64,000 bases of DNA, from positions 106,283 through 170,282 of the forward strand of contig CAYYFB010000002.1 in assembly GCA_964471255.1 (NCBI GenBank), in the 5' to 3' direction. The notes under the pieces are model-generated. The model did no database searches. It was given only the letters and a program-made list of their open reading frames with translations, and was not told the DNA's origin. Source of the DNA: Candidatus Woesearchaeota archaeon (GTDB lineage Archaea > Nanobdellota > Nanobdellia > CAYMVK01 > CAYYFB01). How positions within the stretch are numbered: the stretch's first letter is position 1; every line of letters starts with the position of its first letter. Shown here one piece after another: positions 1-63,523 of the stretch. The translations under genes were made by a program, and so were the position numbers.

Positions 1-853
1 TTCTTGATGCACCAATACTTCTCAATAACCCGATTATTCTAAATCTTTCAAAAACACTTGTGTAAATTGAATTCATAACTCCTATGCTTCCTACCACAAG
101 AGAAATCGATGCTGTTGCCAAGAAAAATATCTGAACAAGAATTTTTATCTTACTTACACTCTTTAAAAGAGTCTCTCCAGTTACTATTCTGAAATCTTCT
201 TTTCCCCTCCTTTTTTTGAGATACTCACGTAATCCTTCTGAAACAATTTCTGGATCTTTCTTTGTTTTTACTAAAACAAAAGAATATCCAGATTTTCCAA
301 AAAGTTCATTATAAGCGCTCTCCAGAATTACAACTGAAGAATCATCAAATTGGCTGCCAGTCCCTTCTAAGATTCCCACTACTTTGAACTTTTCTCCAGC
401 TATTTCTATGGTTTTTCCTACTTCAGCATCAAAAATTTTCTTAGCTACCTTACCTAAGACACATTCATGTCCTTTTTTCAAATACCTCCCATCCGCAATC
501 CTATATCCCGTATCTTCAAACATTTCTTTTACTTTCCTTTTCCCTATCCCATAAATGAGGATAAGTTCTCCATCTTTCATTATTCTTCCAGCCTTAATTG
601 GAAGAGCTAATTTAACATCTTTATATTTCTCTATTTGAGTTATATCTTTCTCAGAGAATCCAGAAAGGGACATGGGAACTACAAGGAGTTTGTTTGTTCC
701 TAAAGAAGAAATTGCTTCTTCCACCCCAGCAAATACTCCTTTGCCTATTGAAAAAAGAGTGAAAATCGAAAATGATCCTATAATGATCCCAAGGCAGGAA
801 AGAAATGATCTTAGTTTTCTATTAAGGATGTTCTTAATAACAAACCATATCAT
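1..853 (-). CDS. ABC transporter permease, FtsX/MacB-like (3' end runs off the window)
   Basis: Not in the ORF track because there is no stop in the window. My translation from the ATG at 853-851 gives MIWFVIKNILNRKLRSFLSCLGIIIGSFSIF...VMNSIYTSVFERFRIIGLLRSIGASR: an N-terminal TM helix, an extracytoplasmic domain and the start of an FtsX helix bundle. ATGA overlap with the stop of ORF 850..2070. Same strand and operon as the ABC ATPase. Confidence 0.7.
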   Translation of the reverse strand, partial: MIWFVIKNILNRKLRSFLSCLGIIIGSFSIFTLFSIGKGVFAGVEEAISSLGTNKLLVVPMSLSGFSEKDITQIEKYKDVKLALPIKAGRIMKDGELILIYGIGKRKVKEMFEDTGYRIADGRYLKKGHECVLGKVAKKIFDAEVGKTIEIAGEKFKVVGILEGTGSQFDDSSVVILESAYNELFGKSGYSFVLVKTKKDPEIVSEGLREYLKKRRGKEDFRIVTGETLLKSVSKIKILVQIFFLATASISLVVGSIGVMNSIYTSVFERFRIIGLLRSIGASR

Positions 854-2070
854 ACTATTCTTCCAATTACCAATCCGATTGCGAAAATGATGACAGGGAT
901 CAAGTACTTCCAAATTTCTACTTCTTTCTGCCATTTAGGTTCTGGAAGGGACACTTCAATCGATTTCCACTCTTCTCCATCGAAAAAGTAGAGTTTTCCT
1001 TTTCCTCCAGAATCTAGCTCAATAGATTCATAATCTTTTGAATAAATTTCCCCTATAAAGTAAGTCTGATTATTCAATAACAAATGAACTGATTCTGCCT
1101 TTTTATCACCTTTATTGAAGACTATAAATTTTATTTTCTTTCTTTTCCAATCGAAAGAATATCCGTAGGATATGTTTGCTTTTTTTCTAATTTTTAAATA
1201 GAAATACCCAGTGTCTATTTCTTTCCATACACCTCTTTCTTCTTTCTCCAGTTTATACCCCAATTTCAAAGTATCCATATCAGGATCTAGGATTTTATAT
1301 GAGAATTCTGGAGCGGGGCCTAGTTCACAGTTCTTATTTAATTCAACTTCTTCTTCAGGGGTGAGACACAATCTACATCTATCGCATATTGAAAATTGAA
1401 GTTTGCCTTCCTTTTGAATCTCCTCCTGGAGTATAAGTATACTCTCTTTGTTTTCTGGCTTTAATGGAAAGATTAAAGTATAGTTCATTGCTTTAGCTTC
1501 TCCTTCATTCTCAAACAAAGCTAAAATCTTCAGAATTTGAGTATCTTCCCCTTTGCCATATATTTTTATTTTAACAGCATCTCCATCACTACACACAACG
1601 TTTTCTCCGACAAATTCCCCATAAACACAGACTCTATCCCCTAAATAGTCAAAGCTTATTGTTATTTCGTTTATCTTCCCCTTTGTTAGGTAAAGAGGAT
1701 AAATGTTCTTTATTCTTGGGAGTTTAAATGGAATGATCAGAGCGTCCAGAATTTGCTCTTTATTTCCCTCAATTTTTATCTTCATCTTTGCTGGCTTCTC
1801 ACACAAGTTTTTCCCTCTTACTAAAACAGAAATTGTATTATTTGCAGAAACCCATCCCAAATCTATTTTGTCTTCTTCAAGTTTAATACAGGAAGGAGCA
1901 TCTATTTTTATTTCGAGATCTTCCCCATTAAGCTCCCATAATTTCAGCTCATATGTGAAAGACTTATTCACTTCAAGGAATACTTTTGGCTCATAGAAGA
2001 TTACACTTACCATGGAAAATACAACTGGAGCAAGAAGGTGGATGAGAAGAAGTGCTTTTAGGAATTTCAT
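850..2070 (-). CDS. Secreted, C-terminally membrane-anchored beta-rich protein of unknown function, within the ABC operon
   Basis: 406-aa ORF with an N-terminal signal-like segment ([19 protein letters not shown]) and a C-terminal TM helix (YLIPVIIFAIGLVIGRIV). It overlaps both neighbours by 4 nt. Confidence 0.6.
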   Translation of the reverse strand: MKFLKALLLIHLLAPVVFSMVSVIFYEPKVFLEVNKSFTYELKLWELNGEDLEIKIDAPSCIKLEEDKIDLGWVSANNTISVLVRGKNLCEKPAKMKIKIEGNKEQILDALIIPFKLPRIKNIYPLYLTKGKINEITISFDYLGDRVCVYGEFVGENVVCSDGDAVKIKIYGKGEDTQILKILALFENEGEAKAMNYTLIFPLKPENKESILILQEEIQKEGKLQFSICDRCRLCLTPEEEVELNKNCELGPAPEFSYKILDPDMDTLKLGYKLEKEERGVWKEIDTGYFYLKIRKKANISYGYSFDWKRKKIKFIVFNKGDKKAESVHLLLNNQTYFIGEIYSKDYESIELDSGGKGKLYFFDGEEWKSIEVSLPEPKWQKEVEIWKYLIPVIIFAIGLVIGRIV

Positions 2071-2777
2071 ACCACAATCCTACCGTCCTTCATTTTTATA
2101 ATCCTTTCTGCCGAAGTAGCAACAGAGTTATCATGCGTAACAACTACGATTGTTTTACCAGATTTATAAAGCTTTTTGAATATTCTTAATATCTTCTCCC
2201 CAGTTTTTGAGTCCAAATTGCCTGTGGGCTCATCTGCGAGTATTATTTCTGGATCATTAGCAAGAGCTCTTGCTATTGCTACTCTTTGTTGTTCTCCCCC
2301 AGATAGTTGAGTAGGAAATTTATTAAGATGTTTCTCTAAGCCTACACTTTCTAATAATTTAACTGCTTTCTTTCTAGCACTTCTAAGAGGTATTCCCCTA
2401 ATTGTTATTGGAAGGGCAACATTATCAAGAACCGTTAAGTAGGGAATTAGAAGAAACTGTTGAAAAATAAATCCTATTTTCTCCCTTCTAATTCTGTCTT
2501 TATCGTGCTCCAGAAGAAGGCTACAGTCTTTTCCAAAAAGAAATATTTTCCCTCGGTCAGGAGATTCTAATAATCCAATAATTCTTAATAATGTGGATTT
2601 GCCTGCTCCAGAAGGCCCCATTATGGCTACAAATTCATTTCTCTCTATCTGAAGAGTAACACCAGCAAGTGCAATTGTTTTACCATATATTTTCCAGACA
2701 TTTCTTAGATCAACCAAAATTTCTTTTTCCATCATTTTTTCTTTTCCTTTCTTTGTTAATATATTCTTATCACTCAT
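2067..2777 (-). CDS. ABC transporter ATP-binding protein (MacB/LolD-like)
   Basis: Walker [10 protein letters not shown], signature [15 protein letters not shown], Walker [13 protein letters not shown]-loop VVTHD. The true start may be the internal MMEKE. Confidence 0.9.
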
Positions 2778-2933
2778 AAGTAACAGAAATATAAAAGATA
2801 AGAAGAAAAAGAATCATAGATAAAACAAGGACGGATGAAAAAGAAATTATTAAGAAAGAACTTTTCATCTACACAATAGCAGAAAGAAATTTCTAGAAAT
2901 TTTCTGCGTATATCCACTGACAATGCCTCTTGT

Positions 2934-3281
2934 CTAACAAGTTAGATGAATTGCTAAAGCGGCTTTTTTCCCTTCTTCTATTAGGTTATTATACTCCTTT
3001 ACTGCTTCCTTACTATCCTTTACTATAACTTCAATTCCCCTTTCTTTAAAATAAGAGATAACATCCTTGTCTACTTTCATAATCCCATAATATCCAGTCC
3101 CAATTACAAGAATTTCAAATTTCTTTTCTTTTAGCCACTTCAGGTCATCTAAGGATAATCTGTGTCCTTCCTTTCTCCACCATTTTTCCAGTATTTCATC
3201 TCCACAGATAATAATATCGTTCTTAAACATCCTTTCTCCAATTTTTATCCTTCCAAACTCATATTCCTCAACTCTTTGCAT
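2934..3281 (-). CDS. Mth938-like (DUF498) domain protein
   Basis: MQRVEEYEFGRIKIGERMFKNDIIICGD...FEILVIGTGYYGIMKV resembles the Mth938 fold family. I trimmed the start to the internal Met to remove the overlap with the divergent GATase gene. Confidence 0.55.
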   Translation of the reverse strand: MQRVEEYEFGRIKIGERMFKNDIIICGDEILEKWWRKEGHRLSLDDLKWLKEKKFEILVIGTGYYGIMKVDKDVISYFKERGIEVIVKDSKEAVKEYNNLIEEGKKAALAIHLTC

Positions 3282-3291
3282 AATCCCAATT

Positions 3292-3846
3292 ATGGAGGTA
3301 TTAATCATAAACAATTACAAGGGAAAAATAGGACTGAAGCGCACCAGAAAAATAAAAGAGTTGTTTCTTAAATGTGGGTTTAGAGATTTTAAGATTCTAA
3401 ATTTTGAAAAGGTAAGGGAAGAACATATAAAAAGAAGCGAGCTCGTGGTATTGTCTGGATATGAGTCCGGATGCATAGGGGATTACCTAGAACTTTCAAA
3501 GAAAGTAAGAAAGGCAAAAAGAGCAATCGGGATTTGTGGTGGAATGTATATAATTGCCTTAGCATTCCATGTGCTTCCGAAAAGTCTTCCTAAAAGAAGG
3601 AAGGGGTTTAATAAAATTGAATTTAAGAAAAGAACATTCCTGGTTTACCATAATCACATTCTCTATCTGCCTGAGGAGAGGTTAAAAAAGTTTGAAATAC
3701 TTGGCCGCTCCAGATTCCTTAGAATGAAAATCCCAGAAATAATTAGAAAAAATAAATTTATTGGCCTTCAGTTTCATCCAGAGCTTTCTGGAGCGGACGG
3801 ATTAAATATAATTAAAGAAATTTTATTTTATTACTTGAAAACTTAA
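3292..3846 (+). CDS. Class I glutamine amidotransferase-like protein
   Basis: Nucleophile elbow GICGGMYIIA and C-terminal LQFHPE motif typical of GATase1 (GuaA-N/PabA-like). Confidence 0.7.
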   Translation: MEVLIINNYKGKIGLKRTRKIKELFLKCGFRDFKILNFEKVREEHIKRSELVVLSGYESGCIGDYLELSKKVRKAKRAIGICGGMYIIALAFHVLPKSLPKRRKGFNKIEFKKRTFLVYHNHILYLPEERLKKFEILGRSRFLRMKIPEIIRKNKFIGLQFHPELSGADGLNIIKEILFYYLKT

Positions 3847-4142
3847 TAACTCCTGGCAAGTTGTTGGATCTATCCTTCTGTATGAATCTGTGAAGTTTAA
3901 GATCAATGTGATTATTAATCTAGTTACAAGTGTGTTGTTTAGTGGTAGGTATTTATTCTCTAATTATTCCGAATTGCCAAAAATCTATGTCTTCCTTTCT
4001 TTATATCTCTCTCATATTAAATCCTTTCTCAATGATTATGCCATCCACAAATACTTTCCATTTACTTTGCTCTTTCCAAACTTGTATCCCTTAATTCCTA
4101 TAATTCTAGAAGGACTAAATTTTCTTTAGCTTCTATGTTACC

Positions 4143-4370
4143 ATGAAGAGGTCCCTCAAAATTCTTTCTGTAATCTTACTTTGGATAGCTGTTATTTGCC
4201 TCTGGATTCTTTATTTACTTATTACTATATCTCAGCTAGGGTTAAAATACCTCATTAATACCGTGCTTGACTGGAGAGTTTGGGTAAAAATCATTGTTGC
4301 TGTTTTAATAATCGACTTGACAATTGAACTTTGTTCTAGAGTTGCAAAAAGACTCTTAAAAAGGAAATAA
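4143..4370 (+). CDS. Small membrane protein (two predicted TM helices)
   Basis: 75-aa ORF with hydrophobic stretches ILSVILLWIAVICLWILYLLITI and VKIIVAVLIIDLTIELC. No homolog recognised. Confidence 0.35.
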   Translation: MKRSLKILSVILLWIAVICLWILYLLITISQLGLKYLINTVLDWRVWVKIIVAVLIIDLTIELCSRVAKRLLKRK

Positions 4371-4398
4371 ATATATCTCAAAGCACTAACTTATTCAT

Positions 4399-4535
4399 GC
4401 CGCCGTAGCTCAGCGGTAGAGCACCAGGCTCATATCCAGGGATGAGGGATTTGAGCGCTGACCATGATGAAATGCTTGGGGAGAGCACTGAAGGGAGAAA
4501 CCTGGGGGTCCGGGGTTCGAATCCCCGCGGCGGCA
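4399..4535 (+). tRNA. tRNA with CAT anticodon (elongator Met or Ile2) and a roughly 65-nt intron after position 37
   Basis: Acceptor GCCGCCG/CGGCGGC. D arm TAGCTCAGCGGTAGAGCA. Anticodon stem CCAGG(4424-4428)/CCTGG(4501-4505), with loop CTCATA + A. T arm CGGGGTTCGAATCCCCG. Discriminator A. G1-C72 argues against an initiator. Confidence 0.9.
4435..4499 (+). ncRNA. Box C/D sRNA-like module inside the tRNA(CAT) intron
   Basis: Box C-like GGGATGA 4439-4445, 12-nt guide GGGATTTGAGCG 4446-4457, D-prime CTGA 4458-4461, C-prime ATGATGA 4464-4470, guide ending ...TTGGGGAGAGCA, D CTGA 4488-4491. Confidence 0.6.
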
Positions 4536-6262: not shown

Positions 6263-6846
6263 TTAATAACTTTTCAACCCATATCTTTCTAGAAAAATTG
6301 CCAAAATAGGCTTATATGTAAATTTACTAACTCCTAAAACTCTTAATGCCTCATTTATTCTCTTGCCTGCTATCTTTGGATCTTTCCCTTCAAATTCCAA
6401 TTCCCCTAGCCATCCAATTTCAGGAATGTATTCTATTACTGTTTTAAAATTTGGCCTTGGTATTTCATAAAACTCACAGTTCACTTTCCTAATCACAGCC
6501 AGCAATTTAAATCCCAAATCATTAACTATTTCTTTACATCTCTCAAGACTTCCTTTATATAACACAACTTTCCCTTCTGGATATAAAGATCTCTTAAATT
6601 TTACTCCATCAATCTCTTTAACTTCGTTCTTTGTAAGCAAAATTTCCGCTGGCTTTCTAGGAACTTTCATTCCCTAATCCTTAAATTCTTCCTAATAGGG
6701 TCCCATTTTTCATTTTTAGGAACATAGTAGTAGTCTGTAAACTCATAGGGAAACAATAGTTTTGCATTTAGTTTCTTTAGCCTATTTTTGAATTCCTTTA
6801 TATCATCAATAAAATATCTTATTTCACATTCATACGCAGAAACCAT
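6263..6846 (-). pseudogene. CYTH-domain (CyaB/ThTPase-like) gene split into two overlapping ORFs
   Basis: The upstream 59-codon ORF 6667..6846 (my translation MVSAYECEIRYFIDDIKEF...NLRIRE) carries the CYTH ExExK/R signature (ECEIR). The downstream ORF 6263..6670 carries the C-terminal half (IEYIPEIGWLGELEFEG). The two join at an ATGA overlap in different frames. Confidence 0.45.
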
Positions 6847-6892
6847 ATTTCCTTGAACATTTCCTAACTCTTAAGATCCCTTTCATAAGCAA

Positions 6893-7012: not shown

Positions 7013-7372
7013 ATGGACCTAAGCAAGAAAGCTAAAATGTTTGAAGAGGAGGCCTATGAAGCGTTCGAAAAGGGAAGATATACATTTACAATTCTTTTTG
7101 CAGAACAAAGCATCCAGCTTTATATAAAACATATTTTGTTTAAAAATTTCGGAGATTTTCCAAAAATACATAATTTAAGAGTTCTTTTTAAGGGACTAAA
7201 TAAGATAAGAGATTTAAGCGACTTTATTGAGGAAAATTCAGCAATTATCGATTTGCTTATGACTGCATATATTGAAGCAAGATATACAAGCATGGAATAT
7301 AGCAAGGTAAGTGCAGAGCTAGCCCTTAAATTTCTAGAAAAATTTAAGGAGAAAATAAAGGATTTGCTATGA
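7013..7372 (+). CDS. HEPN domain protein (HEPN-MNT pair 1)
   Basis: 119 aa, all-helical, with AEQSIQLYIKHIL...HNL...YIEARYT typical of small archaeal HEPN proteins. 4-nt overlap with the MNT gene. Confidence 0.75.
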   Translation: MDLSKKAKMFEEEAYEAFEKGRYTFTILFAEQSIQLYIKHILFKNFGDFPKIHNLRVLFKGLNKIRDLSDFIEENSAIIDLLMTAYIEARYTSMEYSKVSAELALKFLEKFKEKIKDLL

Positions 7373-7725
7373 AATATAGCGTTATAGACCTCCAAAGAGA
7401 GCTAATAGAATCCTACCAGAAATATAGGAAGGACTACTTGAAATATGCTAGAAAAATAAAGGAAATTGCTGAAGAATTTTTTAAGGAAAATCTATTAAAG
7501 GTAATAGTATTTGGATCAACAGTAAAAGGAAATTTTAAGCCCTGGAGTGACATAGATGTTGCAATAATTTTAAAAGAGAGAGTAAATGAGATTGAGATTG
7601 CAAAGTTTATAGGAAAAATAAACAAATTATTTGGTATTCATCCATTTGAAATTCATGTAATTCCCCTAAAGTTTTGGGAGGAATGGTATTCGAAATTTAT
7701 TAAGAAGGATTGGGTTGAGGTTTAG
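7369..7725 (+). CDS. Minimal nucleotidyltransferase (MNT, pair 1)
   Basis: VIVFGSTVKGNFKPWSDIDVAIIL matches the GS-x(n)-DxD pol-beta-type NTase motif. Confidence 0.8.
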   Translation: MKYSVIDLQRELIESYQKYRKDYLKYARKIKEIAEEFFKENLLKVIVFGSTVKGNFKPWSDIDVAIILKERVNEIEIAKFIGKINKLFGIHPFEIHVIPLKFWEEWYSKFIKKDWVEV

Positions 7726-7783: not shown

Positions 7784-8860
7784 CTATTCCTTGATGTATT
7801 TCAAAATTTCCTTAGGATACACTTTAATCCTTATTCCTTGCTCATACTCTTTTAGAAATTCCTCAATTTTCCTTTTGAATTCCTTATTAATCTCTGAAAG
7901 TCTTTTTTCTCTAACAAAAGGATCAACATATCTGCGCTTGGTCCTAACTACAAAGTCAAATTCTTTTTCATCTATCTCAACTCTAATATTCTTTAGCAAA
8001 GATAATATTTTCTTCAACTCCCTATCCTTTATTAAAATCCTATATATTTCTTCCTCTCCCCGCTCCAGAAAATCTTTGGTTTCTATTAGGCCCTGCTCCA
8101 GAGCCTTCTTTAGGATTTTGCTAATAACCAGGAATATCCCTGAATCTTTATTGTAGTATCTAGATAGCTCCAAATAGCTTAGTGAATAAATTAAGGCTGT
8201 CTTTTCAGAACTAAAATACAAATTGCTTCCTTTTTTTATGTCCCTTGCTATCCAAAACAGATCTTCCCCAAATATGGATCTAATATGCCTTAGGGAATAG
8301 TCTAATCTATCTGCGCAAATGTTTGGAATTGGAGAATCTAAATATCTGTATCTTCCATTCCTAAATTTTTTTACCATTCTTTTTAGATTTAAACCATGGT
8401 TCTCACAAATTTCATTTATTTTTGAATTTTCCAAGAAACTTTCCATTACTCTTTCATGCCATTCCTGTTTTTCATAATCCCCAAACAAAAAATCGATTAT
8501 ATGACCAAAAGCAGGCCTGGAAATATCATGCAATAGCCCCATTATTCTTTCTTCATAATTAGCTCCTAGGCTTGTTAATAATGCATAGACTCCAATCGAG
8601 TGCTCAAAGATTGTAACAGGCTTTTTATAGAATGGATTATTGGGGCTTAGGAATACTTTATATCCGCTAAGAGTTATCTTTTTTAGCCTTTTGAATTCTG
8701 GAGCGCGAATTATTTCTGAAGAAAGCTTATTCATTTTAATTTTTCCATATTCTGTTTTTATTTCCATAGATAGGAAAGGATAAATTCCTAATAAGGTGTT
8801 AACAGTGCTTAGATTTTTAAGAAGGTATTTATAGAATTTTCCGCTTTTAATCCAACCCAA
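7784..8860 (-). CDS. HD-domain metal-dependent phosphohydrolase
   Basis: FEHSIGVYALL ... GLLHDISRPAFGH is an HD motif. The track start at 8860 is TTG; the real start is probably an internal Met (for example MEIKTEYG). Confidence 0.7.
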   Translation of the reverse strand: MGWIKSGKFYKYLLKNLSTVNTLLGIYPFLSMEIKTEYGKIKMNKLSSEIIRAPEFKRLKKITLSGYKVFLSPNNPFYKKPVTIFEHSIGVYALLTSLGANYEERIMGLLHDISRPAFGHIIDFLFGDYEKQEWHERVMESFLENSKINEICENHGLNLKRMVKKFRNGRYRYLDSPIPNICADRLDYSLRHIRSIFGEDLFWIARDIKKGSNLYFSSEKTALIYSLSYLELSRYYNKDSGIFLVISKILKKALEQGLIETKDFLERGEEEIYRILIKDRELKKILSLLKNIRVEIDEKEFDFVVRTKRRYVDPFVREKRLSEINKEFKRKIEEFLKEYEQGIRIKVYPKEILKYIKE

Positions 8861-9276
8861 TATTTATCCTATTTATTTTTTCCTTAAACTCCTCCCATCT
8901 CTTATGCTCTTCTTCTGGACTTGCTTCTGCACTTTTGGGTTTTCCCTTTATTTTTAGCCAGCACACCCCATAAATGTCATACATATGTGGTTCTTTCCGG
9001 TAATCTGGAGGGACATTGATATTGTGTTAACCAATCAATTTTCTCCTTCGTTCTTAATGCTTTTTAAATCCTCTTTTTTCGAGCCCAAACATATATTTCC
9101 CAAAAGAAAGCCATTTATGGCTCCCTTATCCAATATATTCTCCTTTTTGTTATGATAAAATAGAAGCGCACTCCCTCTTTTTCAAATTCCTTAGCTATTT
9201 GCTCTATATAAGCTATATTTGTTCCTTTTACTTTATTAGTTCTTAGGACAAATATTTCTGTGTTCTTACCTTCCAT
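8847..9276 (-). pseudogene. Decayed second copy of the end of the cassette (tail of the giant protein plus N- and C-terminal pieces of the 261-aa gene)
   Basis: My translations follow.
- 9276..9115 gives MEGKNTEIFVLRTNKVKGTNIAYIEQIAKEFEKEGVRFYFIITKRRIYWIREP*. It aligns to the last 52 aa of ORF 10083..13517 (MKENDIRYYILRTDRPQEVPLDKIKQLANKFEQENIGFYFVITRRKLWPRKM).
- 9114..9064 gives MAFFWEIYVWARKKRI*, versus MGIYWRVTVWAKDPQDI at the start of ORF 9292..10077.
- 9023..8847 gives NINVPPDYRKEPHMYDIYG...KRWEEFKEKI, versus NINVPPDYWKYPNFYDIYG...NFWKEFERKV at its end. Confidence 0.65.
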
Positions 9277-9291
9277 TTCTTAAGCTATAGT

Positions 9292-10077
9292 TTAGTCAAT
9301 TGAAATTTCTTTTACTTTTCTTTCAAATTCTTTCCAGAAATTATCTGCTTCATCATCAGACATACTCCACCCTGATATTTCCTCTTCTCCATAAATATCA
9401 TAGAAGTTTGGATATTTCCAGTAGTCTGGAGGGACATTGATATTGTATTTTTTATGAAAATTCTTTACTTCTTTTGGGAACTTTTCAACAAGAACTCTAT
9501 TAACTTCGCCAGGAACAATAGATCCGATAACTCTTTTTTCCCTGACATCTTTATATCCTAGAGGATTCCAATATATCAAAAATCTTTTTCGCTTGATTGC
9601 TGGCCAGGGTATTTTCAAAGGTTCTTTGCTCAGTATAAAAAGGGTCCCAGCACAGACCTTAAATGTCTCAAAATATGCTTCCATGAACCTAACTATTTGG
9701 CTGTAATCTGGAGCGGGAATTGGGAGAGATTTATCACTTCCATCAGCAATAATTCCTTTTTCAGTAAAGTAAATCCACCAAGCCAATGGAAATGCAGGAA
9801 AATCCCCTCTATCAGCAGTTAAAGTAACTAAAGCGCTTGATCTCGATGCTCTTACTAGACTGTACATTATTGTCGTTACTATATGTTCTTTGGTCCTTCC
9901 AGGTTTTAGACCTGGAGGAGTTATGTCCCCACCCTTTGCCATAACTGGCTTTCCATTTCTTGTCCGTATCTTCCAATATTGTGTTCTTAGATAGTGGCTT
10001 CTCTTACCTACTTTGAATATCCGCTGTATATCTTGAGGATCCTTAGCCCAAACCGTCACCCGCCAGTATATTCCCAT
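9292..10077 (-). CDS. Hypothetical protein, partner gene of the giant surface protein
   Basis: 261-aa ORF starting 5 nt after the stop of ORF 10083..13517. No recognisable domain. A decayed paralog lies immediately downstream. Confidence 0.6.
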   Translation of the reverse strand: MGIYWRVTVWAKDPQDIQRIFKVGKRSHYLRTQYWKIRTRNGKPVMAKGGDITPPGLKPGRTKEHIVTTIMYSLVRASRSSALVTLTADRGDFPAFPLAWWIYFTEKGIIADGSDKSLPIPAPDYSQIVRFMEAYFETFKVCAGTLFILSKEPLKIPWPAIKRKRFLIYWNPLGYKDVREKRVIGSIVPGEVNRVLVEKFPKEVKNFHKKYNINVPPDYWKYPNFYDIYGEEEISGWSMSDDEADNFWKEFERKVKEISID

Positions 10078-10082
10078 TTATC

Positions 10083-13000
10083 TCACATTTTCCTAGGCCA
10101 TAATTTTCTTCTGGTTATTACAAAGTAGAACCCAATGTTTTCTTGTTCGAATTTATTAGCAAGTTGTTTTATTTTATCCAAAGGTACCTCTTGTGGCCTA
10201 TCCGTCCTTAAGATGTAATACCTTATATCATTCTCCTTCATAAAAGCAATAATCCTATCTACCTTAGTTTCCCCATTTTCCCCCAAAAGCTCGGATAATT
10301 TATCTAATACAAAGGTCCTTGTATTTTCTATTAGGACCCTTCCTTCACTCGTTTCCAAAACCTCATCTACTTCTATCCTATAATCCTTTAATTCATGTCC
10401 CACATATAGCCAATCTGTTATTTCAAATTCTTTTGGAGATCTTGTCGTATATCTTATTTCATCCAAGTCGCAAACCTTCCCAATCTTTAAGTCCTGCAAG
10501 AGATTCTTAAACTCGTATTGGGTTTGTTCTCTTCTCATAAACTCGGTAAAGAATCTTTTATGCCCTATCTTCTCGATTCTGTTCATAATTAAGATCCAAA
10601 TATCCAAAGACTCCGCTCCAGTTTTCTGCATTGCTTTGTAAAACTCAGATACCCTTTTTGGATTGTAAGCAAATATTCCTAGCCATTCTGGCTTAGCCTT
10701 AATTAGCCTAATAGCAAATTCTAGCTCTTCTGGAGCGAGCCCTTCAAATGCTTTTATTACATCAACTTCTCTTAATGTCTTAACAACTTTCTCATTCTTT
10801 ACTGCCTTATAAACCACATTAACGTCTTTTATCTTCTTAGTAAGGTAATCTGCCTTCTCTTTTCCTAATAATTTTCTTATCTCTAAGTACTTGCTCCAGA
10901 AGTCTATTTCAATTGTTGTCGTTATGACATTGGCTACATCCAAAACAAAGTATGGAAGCTCTTCCTCAAGTAAGAATGGATTTTTTGTGTTTGCTAATCT
11001 TAGGCCTCTCCAGGTTGCTGAAGCTGCAGTTGTAATTCCACAGGCTGTTAAAGCTGGAGTGGCCGCTCCAGAACTTGCTAAGGTTGCTGCTAGAGCTGCT
11101 CCACATGCCACTCCAGAAGCTAAATCAAGACCAGCTTGTATGTTTCTTGATTCTCTTTCAAATTTATTCCTTGACTCATAAATTCCAGTATATAAATTCC
11201 CTACTATTTCCCTTAGCCTAAATAGGCTTCCCAGTAATCTTTCCTCTTCCAATTTTTCAATATAATCCCTAATTGATTGGGTCCTTGCTTCTGATTCTAA
11301 GATTCCTTTTTCAAACATCTCAATTAAGTCCCCATTTATGTTTTCAGATTTTCGCTTCTTTAGCCAGGAATATAGAGCTCTTACTCCTGGAATCCATTTT
11401 ATGGCGCTCCAGACTGGAACCTCTTTTTGAATATAAGAATCTATATCTTTTCTGACCCGCTCCAGATAATCAAGAACATCCTTAAATCTCTCCCTTCCCG
11501 CTCCAGTAAGAATTGGCAAATAATAATTAGAATCCTTATCTTTTACCTCTAATATCTCCCCGTACTTGTCTTTGTATGCTTTTCTAATGTATCTTTTTAT
11601 TTCTCTTCTAACTTCCTCTATTATTCTAAGAGTTCTTCTATCCAGAATTCCCTTCCTTAAGCCTACTAATCCAAATTTTGCATAGCTTGAAAGTAGCGCT
11701 CCAGAATCATAGAGAGCCAATGCATTCCTTATTTCATTCTCATTAAAACTAGCTAGCTTATCTAGTAGTCCAAATTTATATAAAAAGGAAATGAAATCTT
11801 TCCTTCCAGTTAGATTAAAGATTCTAATTGCTATTTTGTAATACTTCTTTGGAACCAGTTGATAGATTTGATATAAGGCTTTCAAATCATAGCTATCTAG
11901 GTTATTCTTTAAAACATATTCAGCAAAATCCTTATCCTCAACCTTTCTAAGGACATAGATTGCCCTTTTTCCATATTTCTGGACTAGTTTATCTACAAAC
12001 TCTCTTCCAAATTTTGCATAGAGGTCCTGGTATTCAAATTCGGTATACTCAAATGGAAATATTTTCGTCCTAAATGAATTAAACAACTCTGTCACTCCTT
12101 TTCCAAACCTTTTAAAGATCTCTAATAGAGAAACCCTCTTCTTAATCCTATTGGCATATTTTATTCCCAAATCGGTTAGTTCGACCTCATTTCCTCTTAT
12201 TTTAACTAAGTTCCCTCTCCAGAAATCCCTTCCTGCTCTTATCCCAGTAGTTAAAATTATCCTTCTTAAGTAATTGCTAAGTAAAAAGGCGAGGTAAGCT
12301 GATGCAAATAAAGAGGTTGAAACAAGAATTGCTTTTCTGCTTGCTAATTTGATCCTTACAAATGCTCCAGAATATTTCCTTTTTGATCCCTCCTTTGGTT
12401 TTAATGGATAGTCAAAAGATAAGGGAGTAATATTTCCATAGGTCAAAATTGTTTTTCCATATTCATTTTCCGCTGTTATTTTCAGAACTCCAAATCCTTT
12501 TAGGAATATTTCATTATCCTTTACTTCCTTCTCCTTTCCATTAAAAGAAATATAAACTCTTTTTGCATATTTTGTTTTAAATTTTAAGAGAAAGCCATCG
12601 GATGGAGCTTGGAAGAATAGCCCACATTTACCATTAAAACAAACTTTAATGTCATAAACAATTGGCTTTGAATATACATTAACTCTAATCTTTTTTTCAG
12701 AAAAATCATAGGATGGATCATCTGAAAGATCCCAAACCCTTACAGTCAGTTCTTTTAAACCTAAATCGAAAACATCATTTACACAAACCTTTTTATGATT
12801 TGAATTTATTACTCCAGAAAATAATTCCCGATTGTCTAAATAGACTTCCAATTTTGCTTTATATGGGCTTTCTAAGTTCTTTACTCTCACATCAAAACAA
12901 TCTCCTGGCTTTATTTCGTTTAGATTAAGCATTATTTCTGGTTTTTCATCGCATATGGTCCTAGTATCACAAACAATCCGCTCATCGCAAACCTCCTTAT

Positions 13001-13517
13001 ATTTATCAATGCATACTTTCTCCGTAGTCTTTTCAGCGCATGGATCCCAAACCTGATCATATTTTATGCATCCGTATTCAACGCATCTATGACAGGTATC
13101 GCATTTGGTCCGGTAACAGGTATCGCAAACTAATTTTTCTCTATAATCAGCACAATACCAGTGTATACTGCAAACTTTTACACTAAAAGGCCACCAGCAA
13201 TCCCATCCTAATCCAAATTTGCATTTGCAATCGAAATAGTAATCCCAATCTATGCATTCACTTGTCCTAATCCATCGGCAATTACAAGAATAAGAAACTC
13301 TCCTGCAGTTGCAAGGATAAGATTCCTTGTGCTTGCATCCATATTTCTCACATATGGTTACATAATCTCCATGGCAAACTTCTTCAAGATGACAATCTGT
13401 TCCTATGTAAACTTTATGGCAATTGGATTTTACTCTATGGCAATTGTAGCTCTCCTGCCAGCAATGGGAAAAAATTAAAGGAAATATGAAAAACAAAAGG
13501 AAAACAAGCTTTCTCAT
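10083..13517 (-). CDS. Giant (1144 aa) multidomain membrane/surface protein with a Cys-rich N-terminal region
   Basis: The ORF reads, in order:
- signal-like N-terminus MRKLVFLLFFIFPLIFS;
- about 170 aa with roughly 35 Cys (NCHRV, NCHKV, DCHLE, CDTCYRTKCDTCHRC...);
- beta-rich repeats;
- a TM helix (AILVSTSLFASAYLAFLLSNYL);
- a long helical region;
- an Ala/Gly/Thr-rich hydrophobic segment (GLDLASGVACGAALAATLASSGAATPALTACGITTAASA);
- a C-terminal globular domain. Confidence 0.8.
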   Translation of the reverse strand: MRKLVFLLFFIFPLIFSHCWQESYNCHRVKSNCHKVYIGTDCHLEEVCHGDYVTICEKYGCKHKESYPCNCRRVSYSCNCRWIRTSECIDWDYYFDCKCKFGLGWDCWWPFSVKVCSIHWYCADYREKLVCDTCYRTKCDTCHRCVEYGCIKYDQVWDPCAEKTTEKVCIDKYKEVCDERIVCDTRTICDEKPEIMLNLNEIKPGDCFDVRVKNLESPYKAKLEVYLDNRELFSGVINSNHKKVCVNDVFDLGLKELTVRVWDLSDDPSYDFSEKKIRVNVYSKPIVYDIKVCFNGKCGLFFQAPSDGFLLKFKTKYAKRVYISFNGKEKEVKDNEIFLKGFGVLKITAENEYGKTILTYGNITPLSFDYPLKPKEGSKRKYSGAFVRIKLASRKAILVSTSLFASAYLAFLLSNYLRRIILTTGIRAGRDFWRGNLVKIRGNEVELTDLGIKYANRIKKRVSLLEIFKRFGKGVTELFNSFRTKIFPFEYTEFEYQDLYAKFGREFVDKLVQKYGKRAIYVLRKVEDKDFAEYVLKNNLDSYDLKALYQIYQLVPKKYYKIAIRIFNLTGRKDFISFLYKFGLLDKLASFNENEIRNALALYDSGALLSSYAKFGLVGLRKGILDRRTLRIIEEVRREIKRYIRKAYKDKYGEILEVKDKDSNYYLPILTGAGRERFKDVLDYLERVRKDIDSYIQKEVPVWSAIKWIPGVRALYSWLKKRKSENINGDLIEMFEKGILESEARTQSIRDYIEKLEEERLLGSLFRLREIVGNLYTGIYESRNKFERESRNIQAGLDLASGVACGAALAATLASSGAATPALTACGITTAASATWRGLRLANTKNPFLLEEELPYFVLDVANVITTTIEIDFWSKYLEIRKLLGKEKADYLTKKIKDVNVVYKAVKNEKVVKTLREVDVIKAFEGLAPEELEFAIRLIKAKPEWLGIFAYNPKRVSEFYKAMQKTGAESLDIWILIMNRIEKIGHKRFFTEFMRREQTQYEFKNLLQDLKIGKVCDLDEIRYTTRSPKEFEITDWLYVGHELKDYRIEVDEVLETSEGRVLIENTRTFVLDKLSELLGENGETKVDRIIAFMKENDIRYYILRTDRPQEVPLDKIKQLANKFEQENIGFYFVITRRKLWPRKM

Positions 13518-23166: not shown

Positions 23167-24522
23167 ATGATTAATACTTTTTGGCTTTCGATTTATTTTG
23201 TGGAAGTAAGTAAGTTATTAGAAAAATTTGAAAAGATAAAAGAGATGAAATTTAGTGTAGACAAGCCAAGGTTCGATTTTGAGGAATTCTATTTATCAGT
23301 TTTAGGAAAATCTGTGGAAGATGGATGGGAAGTAAAGAAATACATAGAGAAAATTGTAATAACGCCTGGATCAAAAGCAATGGATATTTTTGGAGCAAGA
23401 CTTTCTGGATGGCAAGAAAAAATCTTCAAAATTGGAGAGCAGATTTCAGTAATGACAAGAGGGATATGGAAGCTCTTTAATGATTTGAGAAAAGCTGAAA
23501 GATTAAGAATACTCTTTAAAGAGTGGGAAAAGAAAAAAGATGAAAAAGCACTTTATCAATTAAAAGCTTACTGGATGACTGAAGTTGATCCAAAAGAGTC
23601 TGGACGTGGATCTATAAATGCATTAGCAGCAATGGGGATGCCAATTATCAGAGATGCTTTCTTTGCCTGCAAGAGTATTGAAGAAGCGGAAAAATTAGAA
23701 ATAAATGAGAGAGTAAAAAGAATTTTGCTCCAAAAATTAAAGTCGTTCTTTATATGGCTTGAATATGAAAAAGAAAATGTAGAGAGAAGGTTAAAGTTTA
23801 CAAGAAGCTACTTGAAATCGATGATGTCTTCACTTGAAAATTACATTTCATGGCTAAAACCCTTGCTTCGCTTTACTAGGGCTTTTAAGTTCGAAGAGTG
23901 GAAGGAGCCTTTTATGCTTTCTTTATTCGATCAGACTTTAGCCTATGCTAGCCTATTTTTATTAAAGGAAGTTCAAGATGGGTATTTTTGCCTAGTAAAG
24001 TTAGATTTAAAATGTTTGGGAAGACATAAGAGAATCTCTGTTCCTCCTGCTGGAGAGACCTATGTGCTTAGCGGTTCTCTTAGTATTTCTCTAGAGGGAT
24101 ATGCGATTAATGAAAAGCAAAAAAAGGAATTATTCGATGCAATTGATGAAGAAGAACAAAAAGCTTTAGAAAATATTGTCTCTAAATCAGAGGAAGAGAT
24201 AATAAAAAGCATAAAAGAATACTTAGAAGCGGTCGAAAAAGGTGAAACAGAATATATAAAGAAAAGTTTGGGAATTGAAGAGGAAAAAAAGAAAAAAAGT
24301 TTAAAAGAAAAAATAAAAGAAGAAAGCCTCATTCTATCCACTTTCATAGAGGCGGCAGAGTTTTTTAGCAAACTTTTTAAGAAGAAAAAGGAGGAAAAGA
24401 AAGAGGAAAAGGAAAAACCTCCAAGAGAACTAAAAATCTATGACCATATAAAAGATTTATGTAAGGATGAATTTGATAAGCTTGTAGATACAGTAAAAGC
24501 TATCGCAGGTATTGAAATATGA
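23167..24522 (+). CDS. Hypothetical 451-aa protein with a Lys/Glu-rich C-terminal half; first gene of a three-gene operon
   Basis: Long ORF with no domain recognised. ATGA overlap with the next gene. The start is uncertain (an internal Met at about 23245 is possible). Confidence 0.55.
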   Translation: MINTFWLSIYFVEVSKLLEKFEKIKEMKFSVDKPRFDFEEFYLSVLGKSVEDGWEVKKYIEKIVITPGSKAMDIFGARLSGWQEKIFKIGEQISVMTRGIWKLFNDLRKAERLRILFKEWEKKKDEKALYQLKAYWMTEVDPKESGRGSINALAAMGMPIIRDAFFACKSIEEAEKLEINERVKRILLQKLKSFFIWLEYEKENVERRLKFTRSYLKSMMSSLENYISWLKPLLRFTRAFKFEEWKEPFMLSLFDQTLAYASLFLLKEVQDGYFCLVKLDLKCLGRHKRISVPPAGETYVLSGSLSISLEGYAINEKQKKELFDAIDEEEQKALENIVSKSEEEIIKSIKEYLEAVEKGETEYIKKSLGIEEEKKKKSLKEKIKEESLILSTFIEAAEFFSKLFKKKKEEKKEEKEKPPRELKIYDHIKDLCKDEFDKLVDTVKAIAGIEI

Positions 24523-36645: not shown

Positions 36646-38109
36646 TTAGGAAATTATAAATTGCTTGCAAACCCCCCTTCCTTGGATTATCAGACATAGT
36701 TCGTAGACTCCGGATCCTAGCAAATCGCAATTAAAGACTCTTGGACGGATATAAATATCGGTTATTACATTTGCCTGGAGGTCAATGGGACCAATATAAG
36801 AATGATTACAGATAAGCTTTCCGGAGCAAGAGTAATCTCTAGAAAGGCCTTTGAGCTTAAAATAACTACCGTTGAAAGGAATGGTTTCTTCAGAAATTAG
36901 AGATACTTTAATTGGACCCAAATAGATTTGTTTTATTTCTTCCTCGCTCAAAGCTCTGTTGTAGATGCGGACTTCGTCGATGGTGCCGTTCCAGAAATCT
37001 ATAGGCGCTCCTTGAGATACACCAACCCTAACTCTTGGCCCAGTATCACGTGGATAGGATGTTACTTCCTTTTCTTCTTCCAATATACCATCAACGTAAA
37101 TTCTTAAGAGAAGCTTACCGTTTATCAGGCCATAAGTCCCAGCTACATGATGCCATCTTCCATCATTTATCAAACTCGTGCTTTCTGCACTATGCCAATT
37201 AGCCCCATCATAATACTGAACTCTTGCAGCTCCCCAAGGTCTCATATCAAGATGATAATCCCAATCATTGCCTGCAGAAACTATCATTCTACGCTCGCCT
37301 GAGTAAGTTGTTTTAACCCACGTTACAAGAGTGAAATCTTTTAAAGGCTTACCTACTGCTTCTGTGATTTCCACATAATCATCTACTCCATCAAAACTCA
37401 AAGCTTTACCAAAACCTGAGCTTTCTTGATGGCTTTCATAAACAATATGATGTGAATCATGTGCAATGTTTCCTTTTCCCTCATCAAATCTCCAAAAAGC
37501 GATTAATCCATCTTGAATGAACGTATTGTTTTCATAGATCGCTTTTATCTCTTCTTCTGTTAGGGCTCTATTGTATATCCTCACTTCATCTATAATCCCA
37601 TTAACAGTTCTCTCCTCTCCAGCCATCCCTCCTATCCATAGGCTCTCCGTGCTTTCTGCTACTGAATATCCCGCAAATTTATCCGTTTGCTTTACAAGTT
37701 CACCATTAATGTAAAGTTTCAGGTAGGTTCCATCCCATGTTCCAACTACAAATTGCCATTCGTCCGTTAATTTGCCCCCTTCTAAAGTATGCCACCCTTC
37801 TCCGTCATAAAATCCAATGAGAAATCTATTTGGGTAGACATACTCATCAATTGCCAGACCATAGGAGAGCCATTTCCACGCGATAAAGTCCCAGTAAGGA
37901 GCAGCGCTAGGTTTGCTTTTGGCTTTTACCCACGCTGCAATTGTAAAGTTCTGTAGGTTTAGAGTATCACTATGAGATATTTCAACATAATCATCCACTC
38001 CATCGAACTGTAAAGCTTTTCCTATCTTCCCATCTACCCACCTAGCCCCAAAGATACTTCCATCATTTAGGACTTCCCCCATAAAAAATTCCATCATTTC
38101 CATTCCCAC
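36646..38109 (-). CDS. Tandem LamG / concanavalin-A-like lectin domain protein (likely the 3' part of a frameshifted gene)
   Basis: Two repeats of GKALxFDGVDDYVEI...W...IDEVRIYNRAL(T/S)EEEIK. No signal peptide of its own. It overlaps ORF 38063..38365 by 47 nt in another frame. Confidence 0.75.
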   Translation of the reverse strand: MGMEMMEFFMGEVLNDGSIFGARWVDGKIGKALQFDGVDDYVEISHSDTLNLQNFTIAAWVKAKSKPSAAPYWDFIAWKWLSYGLAIDEYVYPNRFLIGFYDGEGWHTLEGGKLTDEWQFVVGTWDGTYLKLYINGELVKQTDKFAGYSVAESTESLWIGGMAGEERTVNGIIDEVRIYNRALTEEEIKAIYENNTFIQDGLIAFWRFDEGKGNIAHDSHHIVYESHQESSGFGKALSFDGVDDYVEITEAVGKPLKDFTLVTWVKTTYSGERRMIVSAGNDWDYHLDMRPWGAARVQYYDGANWHSAESTSLINDGRWHHVAGTYGLINGKLLLRIYVDGILEEEKEVTSYPRDTGPRVRVGVSQGAPIDFWNGTIDEVRIYNRALSEEEIKQIYLGPIKVSLISEETIPFNGSYFKLKGLSRDYSCSGKLICNHSYIGPIDLQANVITDIYIRPRVFNCDLLGSGVYELCLIIQGRGVCKQFIIS

Positions 38110-63394: not shown

Positions 63395-63523
63395 GCCCCC
63401 GTAGCTCAGCCTGGAAGAGCACCGGCCTCCTAATGATAAGGGCAGCTCGGGCTGAATAATGATGAATAAACCACCGTTTGAGGAGAAAGCCGGGGGTCGC
63501 GGGTTCAAATCCCGCCGGGGGCA
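63395..63523 (+). tRNA. tRNA-Arg (CCT) with a roughly 55-nt intron after position 37
   Basis: GCCCCCG TA GCTCAGCCTGGAAGAGC A CCGGC CTCCTA [intron] A GCCGG GGGTC GCGGGTTCAAATCCCGC CGGGGGC A. Confidence 0.9.
63433..63487 (+). ncRNA. Box C/D sRNA-like module inside the tRNA-Arg(CCT) intron
   Basis: C-like ATGATAA 63433-63439, 12-nt guide GGGCAGCTCGGG, D-prime CTGA 63452-63455, linker ATA, C-prime ATGATGA 63459-63465, 12-nt guide ATAAACCACCGT, D-like TTGA 63478-63481. Confidence 0.6.

Follow-up and report, generated by a model that had tools for sequence, protein, structure and literature searches.

A giant membrane protein locus of a woesearchaeal archaeon with a possible polymorphic-toxin-like organisation and a probable displaced cassette end

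A giant gene, its partner and a downstream remnant

We analysed a 64,000-nucleotide (nt) stretch of contig CAYYFB010000002.1 (assembly GCA_964471255.1, positions 106,283 to 170,282 of the forward strand) from a Candidatus Woesearchaeota archaeon, hereafter the window, which has a GC content of ~34% and encodes a giant, predicted membrane-anchored protein with a small partner gene directly behind it. The open reading frame (ORF) of the giant protein, which we call W, lies on the minus strand (window 10083..13517, stop codon included) and encodes 1144 amino acids. The partner gene (9292..10077, minus strand, 261 amino acids) follows after a 5-nt spacer, ‘gataa’, between the TGA of the giant gene and the ATG of the partner. 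The ORF map agrees in coordinates, sizes and spacing with the original prediction for this locus.

That prediction also held that the cassette junction, comprising the tail of the giant protein, the start of the partner and the end of the partner, is repeated downstream as a copy that has diverged at the protein level and lost its interior. Our comparisons bear this out for all three pieces, which lie on the minus strand and are collinear with the cassette. The first is an intact 53-codon ORF (ORF53, 9115..9276) that starts 15 nt past the stop codon of the partner and copies the last 52 residues of the giant protein. In the alignment to residues 1093–1143 of the giant protein (10089..10241), 18 of 52 positions are identical (35%) and 69% are positives (BLASTP E = 6e-10, z = 15.4 against shuffles). 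The second piece is a 16-codon ORF (9064..9114, MAFFWEIYVWAR...; in full MAFFWEIYVWARKKRI*), which abuts the stop codon of ORF53 in the same frame with no spacer and resembles the N-terminus of the partner. Five of 12 residues are identical to partner residues 1–12 (z = 4.3–5.2), a similarity that is weak alone and stands at exactly the expected position. The third is an open frame (8847..9023) that reads NINVPPDYRKEPHMYDIYG...NIGLD*, beginning with NINVPPDY, in a different frame from the N-terminal piece. It matches residues 211–260 of the partner at 41% identity (tblastn E = 2e-8, z = 14.8), and 15 of its first 19 residues are identical to the partner, as had been noted. No further copies of giant or partner sequence are present in the 64-kb window.

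The old partner copy is dead, with a frameshift and ~195 codons missing between its N-terminal and C-terminal remnants. At the right-hand edge of this internal deletion lies one copy of a 61-nt direct repeat (8968..9028, minus strand), and the other copy is in the partner gene (9389..9449, minus strand, codons for ...YNINVPPDYWKYPNFYDIYG). The repeat encodes NINVPPDY..YDIYG and the copies are 84% identical at the DNA level, with the first ~24 nt fully identical, while the remainder of the remnant is 44–57% identical. This patch may have come from gene conversion, may be the joint of a recombination event or may be a motif under strong constraint. Recombination between the two copies would delete ORF53 and yield a chimeric partner gene. 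Two independent short metagenome contigs (L002 and L007) both end inside the downstream copy, at about window 8975–8981; the last 15 nt of L002 (1487–1501, CTGTCTCTTATACACATCT) are Nextera adapter rather than genome. We also considered whether homology to the giant tail extends upstream of the ATG of ORF53 (EISID*TIA*E compared with ETKVDRIIAF) and judged the resemblance coincidental, EISID* being the native end of the partner and matching the NIGLD* of the remnant.

Constraint on the tail copy

Over the 47 ungapped codons that align ORF53 with the tail of the giant protein, 61 of 141 nt differ (43%) and no stop codon has arisen. Identity at the first, second and third codon positions is 0.53, 0.71 and 0.47, respectively (51 aligned codons), with a nonsynonymous divergence (dN) of 0.48 and a saturated synonymous divergence (dS). 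As a neutral test, we placed an equal number of random substitutions on the tail of the giant gene in 5000 simulations. The frame stayed open in 4.9% of them (P(no stop) = 0.05), and the excess of second-position over third-position identity was as large as observed with P = 0.014. The clearest departure was in protein similarity, where the observed BLOSUM62 score of 96 exceeds every simulated value (24 ± 16, maximum 84, P<2e-4).

Because the frame is open, the BLOSUM62 score lies above the neutral maximum and second positions are favoured over third, most of the divergence of the tail copy arose while it encoded a working protein under protein-level selection. A 52-codon stub cannot be the selected protein, and the simplest history is therefore that two alleles diverged apart and were later joined; divergence under protein selection is what would be expected of alleles that evolved separately before being brought together. 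The downstream remnant is probably a displaced, diverged cassette end.

The giant protein family and the possible fold of its variable tip

The giant protein belongs to a family of four members among ~15 billion public proteins, all from AT-rich archaea. Among 5.8 G protein clusters, a word-indexed search returned only the giant protein itself and P0002 (G2, on contig L001). HMMER, run in full over 1.84 G representatives, returned only these two and P0007, a truncated gene call whose full ORF (L005:2555-5956, 1133 amino acids) we call G3; L005 is contig JBPLNB010000087.1 of GCA_054036315.1. The fourth member (G4, on L006) is truncated at its 3′ end and came from a second genome scan, in a metagenome-assembled genome labelled Candidatus Woesearchaeota, kingdom Nanobdellati (DPANN). 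The first genome contig scan and the viral contig scan gave no further relatives, and a metagenome scan gave only L001 again.

The members share an N-terminal part of ~650 residues at 30–46% identity, comprising a signal peptide, a Cys-rich domain, the VWDLSDDPSYD region, a transmembrane (TM) helix and a helical domain. In W, residues 1–190 (12948..13517; all features of the giant protein lie on the minus strand) hold a signal-peptide-like hydrophobic N-terminus (residues 1–19) and the Cys-rich domain, with 28 cysteines within the first 200 residues; this region is kept in all four members, and by sequence inspection the hydrophobic N-terminus has a Kyte-Doolittle score of 1.7–2.6 in each. The conserved region that follows (residues 191–385, 12363..12947) carries the invariant motif VWDLSDDP(S/N/T)YD, has no Pfam match, and is probably a β-rich ectodomain. 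A predicted TM helix, AILVSTSLFASAYLAFLLS (residues 396–414, 12276..12332), has a Kyte-Doolittle score of 1.86, and the equivalent segment in the homologues scores 1.3–1.7. The conserved helical domain (residues 420–655, 11553..12260) is the last part common to all members and ends in the motif (R/K)(F/Y)G(L/I)xG(L/I)R ... RK.Y.D..G.

The full-length reading of W is supported by the conservation of the N-terminus (SHCW... and the Cys pattern) in the three homologues. In the public gene calls, W begins at residue 196 (P0001, 949 amino acids) and the L005 homologue at residue 215 (P0007, 919 amino acids). These truncated calls omit window 12933–13517 (residues 1–195) and L005:2555-3196, and thereby lose the signal peptide and Cys-rich domain that all four members keep.

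Beyond the helical domain the proteins part ways. The variable half of W (residues 656–1144, 10086..11552) has no detectable similarity to G3 or G2. It consists of an Ala/Gly-rich hydrophobic segment or segments (residues 795–835, 11013..11135, number of membrane passes uncertain), a helical stretch and a terminal portion of ~110 residues; analogous Gly-rich hydrophobic segments are present in G2 and G3. W and G3 are 42–46% identical over residues 1–640 and unrelated by score over the last ~480 residues (z = -0.2), and W and G2 are 30–35% identical over the same front part, with z = 1.1 for the C-terminal half. In the front half, W, G3 and G4 are roughly equidistant. Past the (F/Y)G(L/I)xG(L/I)R motif, the last 75 residues of G4 match W (z = 14.8, through residue ~722) and do not match G3 (z = 0.6), which we take as a modest sign of possible mosaicism.

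The genes directly downstream differ in the same manner, encoding mutually unrelated proteins of 261 (W), 398 (L001) and 211 (L005) amino acids. Each is closely spaced from its giant gene, lying 5 nt after it in W, overlapping it by 4 nt in L001 and starting 6–30 nt after it in L005. No synteny is shared among the four loci. In L001, a gene for a 1415-amino-acid protein with no Pfam match (145-4392, minus strand) lies 5.6 kb upstream of G2. The window partner has no predicted signal peptide or TM helix, and among the 5.8 G protein clusters it matches only itself and is in that sense an ORFan; we regard it as a candidate cognate immunity protein. Its sole Pfam match is to SUKH-1/SMI1_KNR4 (E = 0.048, residues 199–246, over the NINVPPDY patch), at 14.7 bits compared with the curated threshold of 25.4. 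We did not use this match to identify the partner, as ~50 residues are too short for a SUKH domain and the score is too weak.

The terminus of G2 carries a canonical D...ExK motif (EVDIITSTRIIEIKG), as does that of G3 (GDFVVEDKGKIVIYECK), whose end reads GDFVVEDKGKIVIYECKAK. On L005, a stand-alone ORF after the 211-amino-acid partner gene (6570-6857, plus strand) is cut by the contig end, up to which alone the locus is seen; it reads ...EIDIITDKYIIECKSGK...LLYVFSSDPP, with a clear D...ExK motif in EIDIITDKYIIECKSGK. Its best Pfam match is Tox-REase-3 (E = 0.016), which is sub-threshold (15.9 compared with 25 bits), and it also matches the PADLOC model CARF_PDDEXK, likewise below threshold (E = 0.003). 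MAFFT aligns the four termini and ORF53 along a common order of elements, which begins with an E-helix and continues through the D strand and the ExK strand to a hydrophobic strand with Pro behind it and one last strand. ORF53 matches the closing β-α-β portion of this nuclease-like unit and is therefore not a complete domain. The original prediction spoke of an ‘orphan’ copy; what lies downstream is a stub of 52 codons, its partner gene wrecked as well, and offers no usable spare module.

In W, the terminal residues 1030–1144 (10086..10430) are a candidate PD-(D/E)xK-like domain of ~110 residues, in which E...IEVDEV...RVLIENTRT is followed by a β-α-β arrangement. AlphaFold2 models of residues 860–1144 (single sequence, mean predicted local distance difference test score (pLDDT) 44.9) and 988–1144 (aligned with ORF53, pLDDT 47.8) were of low confidence, and we used their secondary structure alone. 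For the last 95 residues this is β-β-β-α-β-α-β, which is compatible with a PD-(D/E)xK core, itself α-β-β-β-α-β with E, D and (D/E)xK as its catalytic residues. Mus81, ERCC1 and EcoT38I were among the top Foldseek matches and were not counted, as none was significant. Searches of Pfam, NCBIfam and PADLOC with the giant protein, the partner, the siblings and the isolated C-terminal pieces gave nothing above threshold, and neither single sequences nor a profile of five sequences retrieved a relevant match from the PDB sequences. For neither the C-terminus nor the partner did the proposed fold check, from the family databases to the two AlphaFold runs and Foldseek, show a toxin or immunity fold.

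The genes around the giant locus are housekeeping genes (a LeuRS-type synthetase, AspRS, CTP synthase and ABCE1, with GatE also in the window), and there is no defence island around it. An overlapping gene pair encoding HEPN (PF05168, E = 4e-22) and a minimal nucleotidyltransferase (MNT; PF01909, E = 6e-14) lies at window 7013–7725 on the plus strand; this toxin-antitoxin-type module is 1.1 kb downstream of the remnant, past an HD-domain gene (7784–8860). Two co-directional ORFs of 59 and 135 amino acids with a 4-nt overlap (6263–6846, minus strand) may represent a single gene broken by a frameshift, and the 135-amino-acid ORF has no Pfam match. A 451-amino-acid ORF without a Pfam match (23167–24522, plus strand) is weakly similar to the helical domain of the giant protein (residues 413–702; 20% identity over 321 residues, tblastn E = 0.008 within the window); it may be distantly paralogous to that domain, or the similarity may be an artefact of composition. 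A 487-amino-acid protein (36646–38109, minus strand) has two strong Laminin_G_3/ConA-like lectin domains (E = 3.5e-60) and may be another surface protein; its coding region has a weak, non-significant match to the Cys-rich N-terminus of the giant protein (tblastn E = 0.33). Two long tRNA genes (4399–4535 and 63395–63523, both plus strand; 137 and 129 nt) match the full Rfam model, are presumably intron-containing, and were missed by ARAGORN in bacterial mode. Together with GatE, these tRNA genes mark the host as an archaeon. A scan for sigma-70 promoters and terminators was uninformative, the host being archaeal.

Interpretation and relation to known systems

The reading that we favour, and to which we give roughly even confidence, is a polymorphic-toxin-like locus built on an archaeal giant membrane protein, where the old tip and immunity cassette gave way to a diverged allele. 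The constant N-terminal ~650 residues would be the ‘presentation’ part. The last ~450–490 residues would be exchangeable, comprising the Gly/Ala-rich hydrophobic segment, the helical stretch and the terminal ~110-residue domain that appears PD-(D/E)xK-like in the siblings, and the presumably cytoplasmic small protein encoded 5 nt downstream would be the cognate neutraliser of the tip. Window 8847–9276 would then be the leftover of an older, allelic tip-plus-partner cassette. A diverged allele would have recombined in, with its left crossover in the conserved gene body and its right join near codon 1092, within the old tail, bringing a new C-terminus and a new partner and shifting the old last 52 codons and old partner downstream, where the old partner would afterwards have lost ~195 codons and its reading frame. 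Toxicity, immunity, the export or delivery of the tip and the route of recombination are what we infer in this reading.

The original prediction had likened the layout to toxin-immunity loci of the Rhs and contact-dependent inhibition (CDI) kind. The layout itself holds up, in that the N-terminal ~650 residues are kept, the C-terminal ~450 residues are non-alignable, each locus has an unrelated downstream gene and L005 has a stand-alone ORF. The comparison to named systems does not, since the locus is neither Rhs nor CDI, and neither the C-terminus of W nor the partner showed a toxin or immunity fold.

Several observations count against a toxin. W reads IEVDEV...RVLIENTRT, with ENT where the siblings have ExK, so that Thr replaces the catalytic Lys. 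Both structure models are of low confidence, the best Foldseek match in the PDB has E = 0.66, and no toxin or immunity family matches the C-terminus of W or its partner significantly. The C-termini of the family resemble one another only at noise level in pairwise comparison, and hhalign of the terminus of W with those of its siblings gives a probability of 0.3%. Toxin domains of genuine polymorphic toxin systems (PTS) are usually re-used on other scaffolds; the C-terminal domains of the giant protein occur on no other delivery scaffold in the HMMER search of the 1.84 G representatives made with the full protein. The TM helix sits after the ectodomain, so by predicted topology the C-terminal half may be in the cytoplasm, as would suit a receptor or effector more than a toxin that is exported. 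What speaks most against a classical toxin is this helix of the constant part, together with the fact that the tips are absent from other scaffolds. Other observations also count against the favoured reading: the variable part is ~43% of the giant protein with a fuzzy boundary (residues ~630–700), very fast divergence is inseparable from cassette swapping with four sequences, no strain variants were found (L002, L003 and L007 are 99.9–100% identical to the window), and the ‘orphan’ remnant has no conserved upstream homology for re-use.

We weighed three other explanations. In the first, which we think unlikely, the giant protein would have no toxin activity and would serve a small symbiotic (DPANN-type) archaeon as an adhesin or in recognition, being a variable protein of the cell surface or of host contact. 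Under diversifying selection for recognising a partner or host, the rear half and a partner acting as accessory protein or chaperone would evolve very fast or be swapped, as proposed for VARTIG, leaving the remnant as a recombination by-product. The signal peptide, Cys-rich ectodomain and TM helix agree with such a protein, as do the lack of a toxin family match for W, the sole named relative being a Woesearchaeota metagenome-assembled genome, and the similar organisation of VARTIG without identifiable toxins (PMC8416519). However, the predicted ectodomain is the best conserved part rather than the variable part, nuclease-type D...ExK motifs are found in the sibling termini and the L005 orphan, and the partner is predicted to be cytoplasmic. 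That last prediction, together with a predicted topology that places residues 420–790 and possibly the entire rear half in the cytoplasm, would suit a membrane-anchored sensor-effector, which we rate as quite unlikely; it would act in defence or abortive infection, or form a pair of toxin-antitoxin type. Here the ectodomain would sense, for example, virus attachment, the nuclease-like cytoplasmic C-terminus would be the effector and the partner its inhibitor, and the variability would reflect an arms race with viral inhibitors. The HEPN-MNT pair 1.1 kb away and the match of the L005 orphan to PADLOC PDDEXK effector models speak for it, but PADLOC matches none of W, its partner, G2 or G3, the surroundings are housekeeping genes rather than a defence island, and stand-alone tip cassettes with displaced tip-plus-partner remnants are typical of polymorphic toxins and not of defence effectors (PMC3482391).

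The remnant could also have arisen when the last ~52 codons of the giant gene and the partner were duplicated locally in tandem, the second copy then decaying neutrally without cassette exchange. The remnant does begin right after the stop codon of the partner, like a tandem junction, the second partner copy is clearly dead through its frameshift and ~195-codon deletion, and the 84%-identical 61-nt patch could be what original identity or gene conversion has left. Yet a 5′-truncated tail could not have been under selection, and the divergence observed shows strong constraint at the protein level (BLOSUM 96, where neutral runs reach 84 at most), with P(no stop) at 0.05, second codon positions kept over third (P = 0.014), and synonymous sites saturated while ORF53 stays open. 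A simple tandem duplicate in decay, which the original prediction had itself named as a finding that would refute it, is therefore disfavoured by the neutral-substitution simulations, and we consider it very unlikely.

For the polymorphic-toxin-like reading, the template is a constant 5′ body and a replaceable 3′ cassette with its own immunity gene, with leftover cassettes or immunity genes downstream (PMC3482391). The window locus resembles the PTS described by Zhang, Aravind et al. 2012 (PMC3482391) in that its large multi-domain protein, secreted or at the surface, keeps the 5′ body constant and varies at the 3′ tip. The small gene directly behind it varies along with the tip, pieces of tip and partner, left over or standing alone, follow further downstream, and the sibling tips have restriction-endonuclease-fold motifs. 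Unlike them, the giant protein lacks RHS, filamentous haemagglutinin, LXG/WXG, PAAR, HINT and DUF4157 and any known trafficking, repeat or protease domain. Its constant part contains a TM helix, and its variable part, which is very long (~450–490 residues), contains a hydrophobic segment; the tips are found on no other scaffold, and the putative toxin and immunity protein of the window copy are assigned to no family. With CdiBAI (CDI) and Rhs loci it shares displaced C-terminal tip and immunity modules downstream of a full-length gene and a short well-conserved sequence that marks the end of the constant part. It differs from CDI in having no two-partner secretion domain, filamentous haemagglutinin repeats or VENN (Pfam, E <= 0.1) and no cdiB-like neighbour, in an archaeal host without an outer membrane, and from Rhs in having no RHS/YD repeats (Pfam) and no PxxxxDPxGL motif in the giant protein. 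The orphans of both systems usually keep constant-region homology for re-use, whereas the window remnant has none and is degraded.

VARTIG of Thermococcales (PMC8416519) is likewise a large archaeal surface protein with a recombining hypervariable C-terminus, variable downstream genes and a PTS-like organisation of unassigned function. The giant protein has no sequence relation to VARTIG (arCOG07710) and no Ig or CARDB Pfam matches, and the variable part of VARTIG is an extracellular Ig domain without nuclease motifs, confined to Thermococcales. For Tox-REase-3 (PF15647) toxins, the immunity protein given is Imm-SUKH (PMC3482391). The best Pfam match of the L005 orphan is Tox-REase-3 and the only Pfam match of the window partner is SUKH-1; both matches are sub-threshold, and that to Tox-REase-3 is in the orphan of another genome and not in W.

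The statement that there was no archaeal precedent holds for the protein family of the giant protein only, as archaeal polymorphic toxin systems have already been reported or predicted (PMC3482391, PMC6393860, PMC8416519). They are known from Methanosarcina and haloarchaea and mostly look borrowed from bacteria (PMC3482391), and according to Makarova et al. 2019 (mBio), as cited in PMC8416519 and PMC6393860, they are predicted more widely. PD-DExK nucleases are common toxins in the predicted archaeal systems (PMC6393860, PMC8416519), which so far have been predicted without experimental test (PMC8416519). The giant scaffold is previously undescribed, while the concept of polymorphic toxins in archaea is already known.

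The locus carries the full genomic signature of a PTS (constant body, exchangeable tip, co-varying partner and leftover cassettes) on a scaffold unrelated to the described delivery systems. More speculatively, and in our view rather doubtfully, a DPANN-type archaeon may deliver an exchangeable nuclease tip into neighbour or host cells through the membrane-anchored giant protein, for competition or nucleic-acid scavenging, with a Gly/Ala-rich membrane-insertion segment and a cytoplasmic immunity protein, in a contact-dependent weapon, specific to its lineage and independent in origin of bacterial scaffolds, that diversifies by allele replacement and leaves remains of old cassettes. If the tip is not a toxin, the proteins still form a new four-member family of giant membrane proteins, from which public gene calls drop the Cys-rich N-terminal domain. 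If it is a toxin, the locus would offer a compact, testable toxin-immunity pair together with a natural ‘fossil’ of cassette replacement, and this fossil would aid the study of inter-cell conflict and host interaction in little-known archaea.

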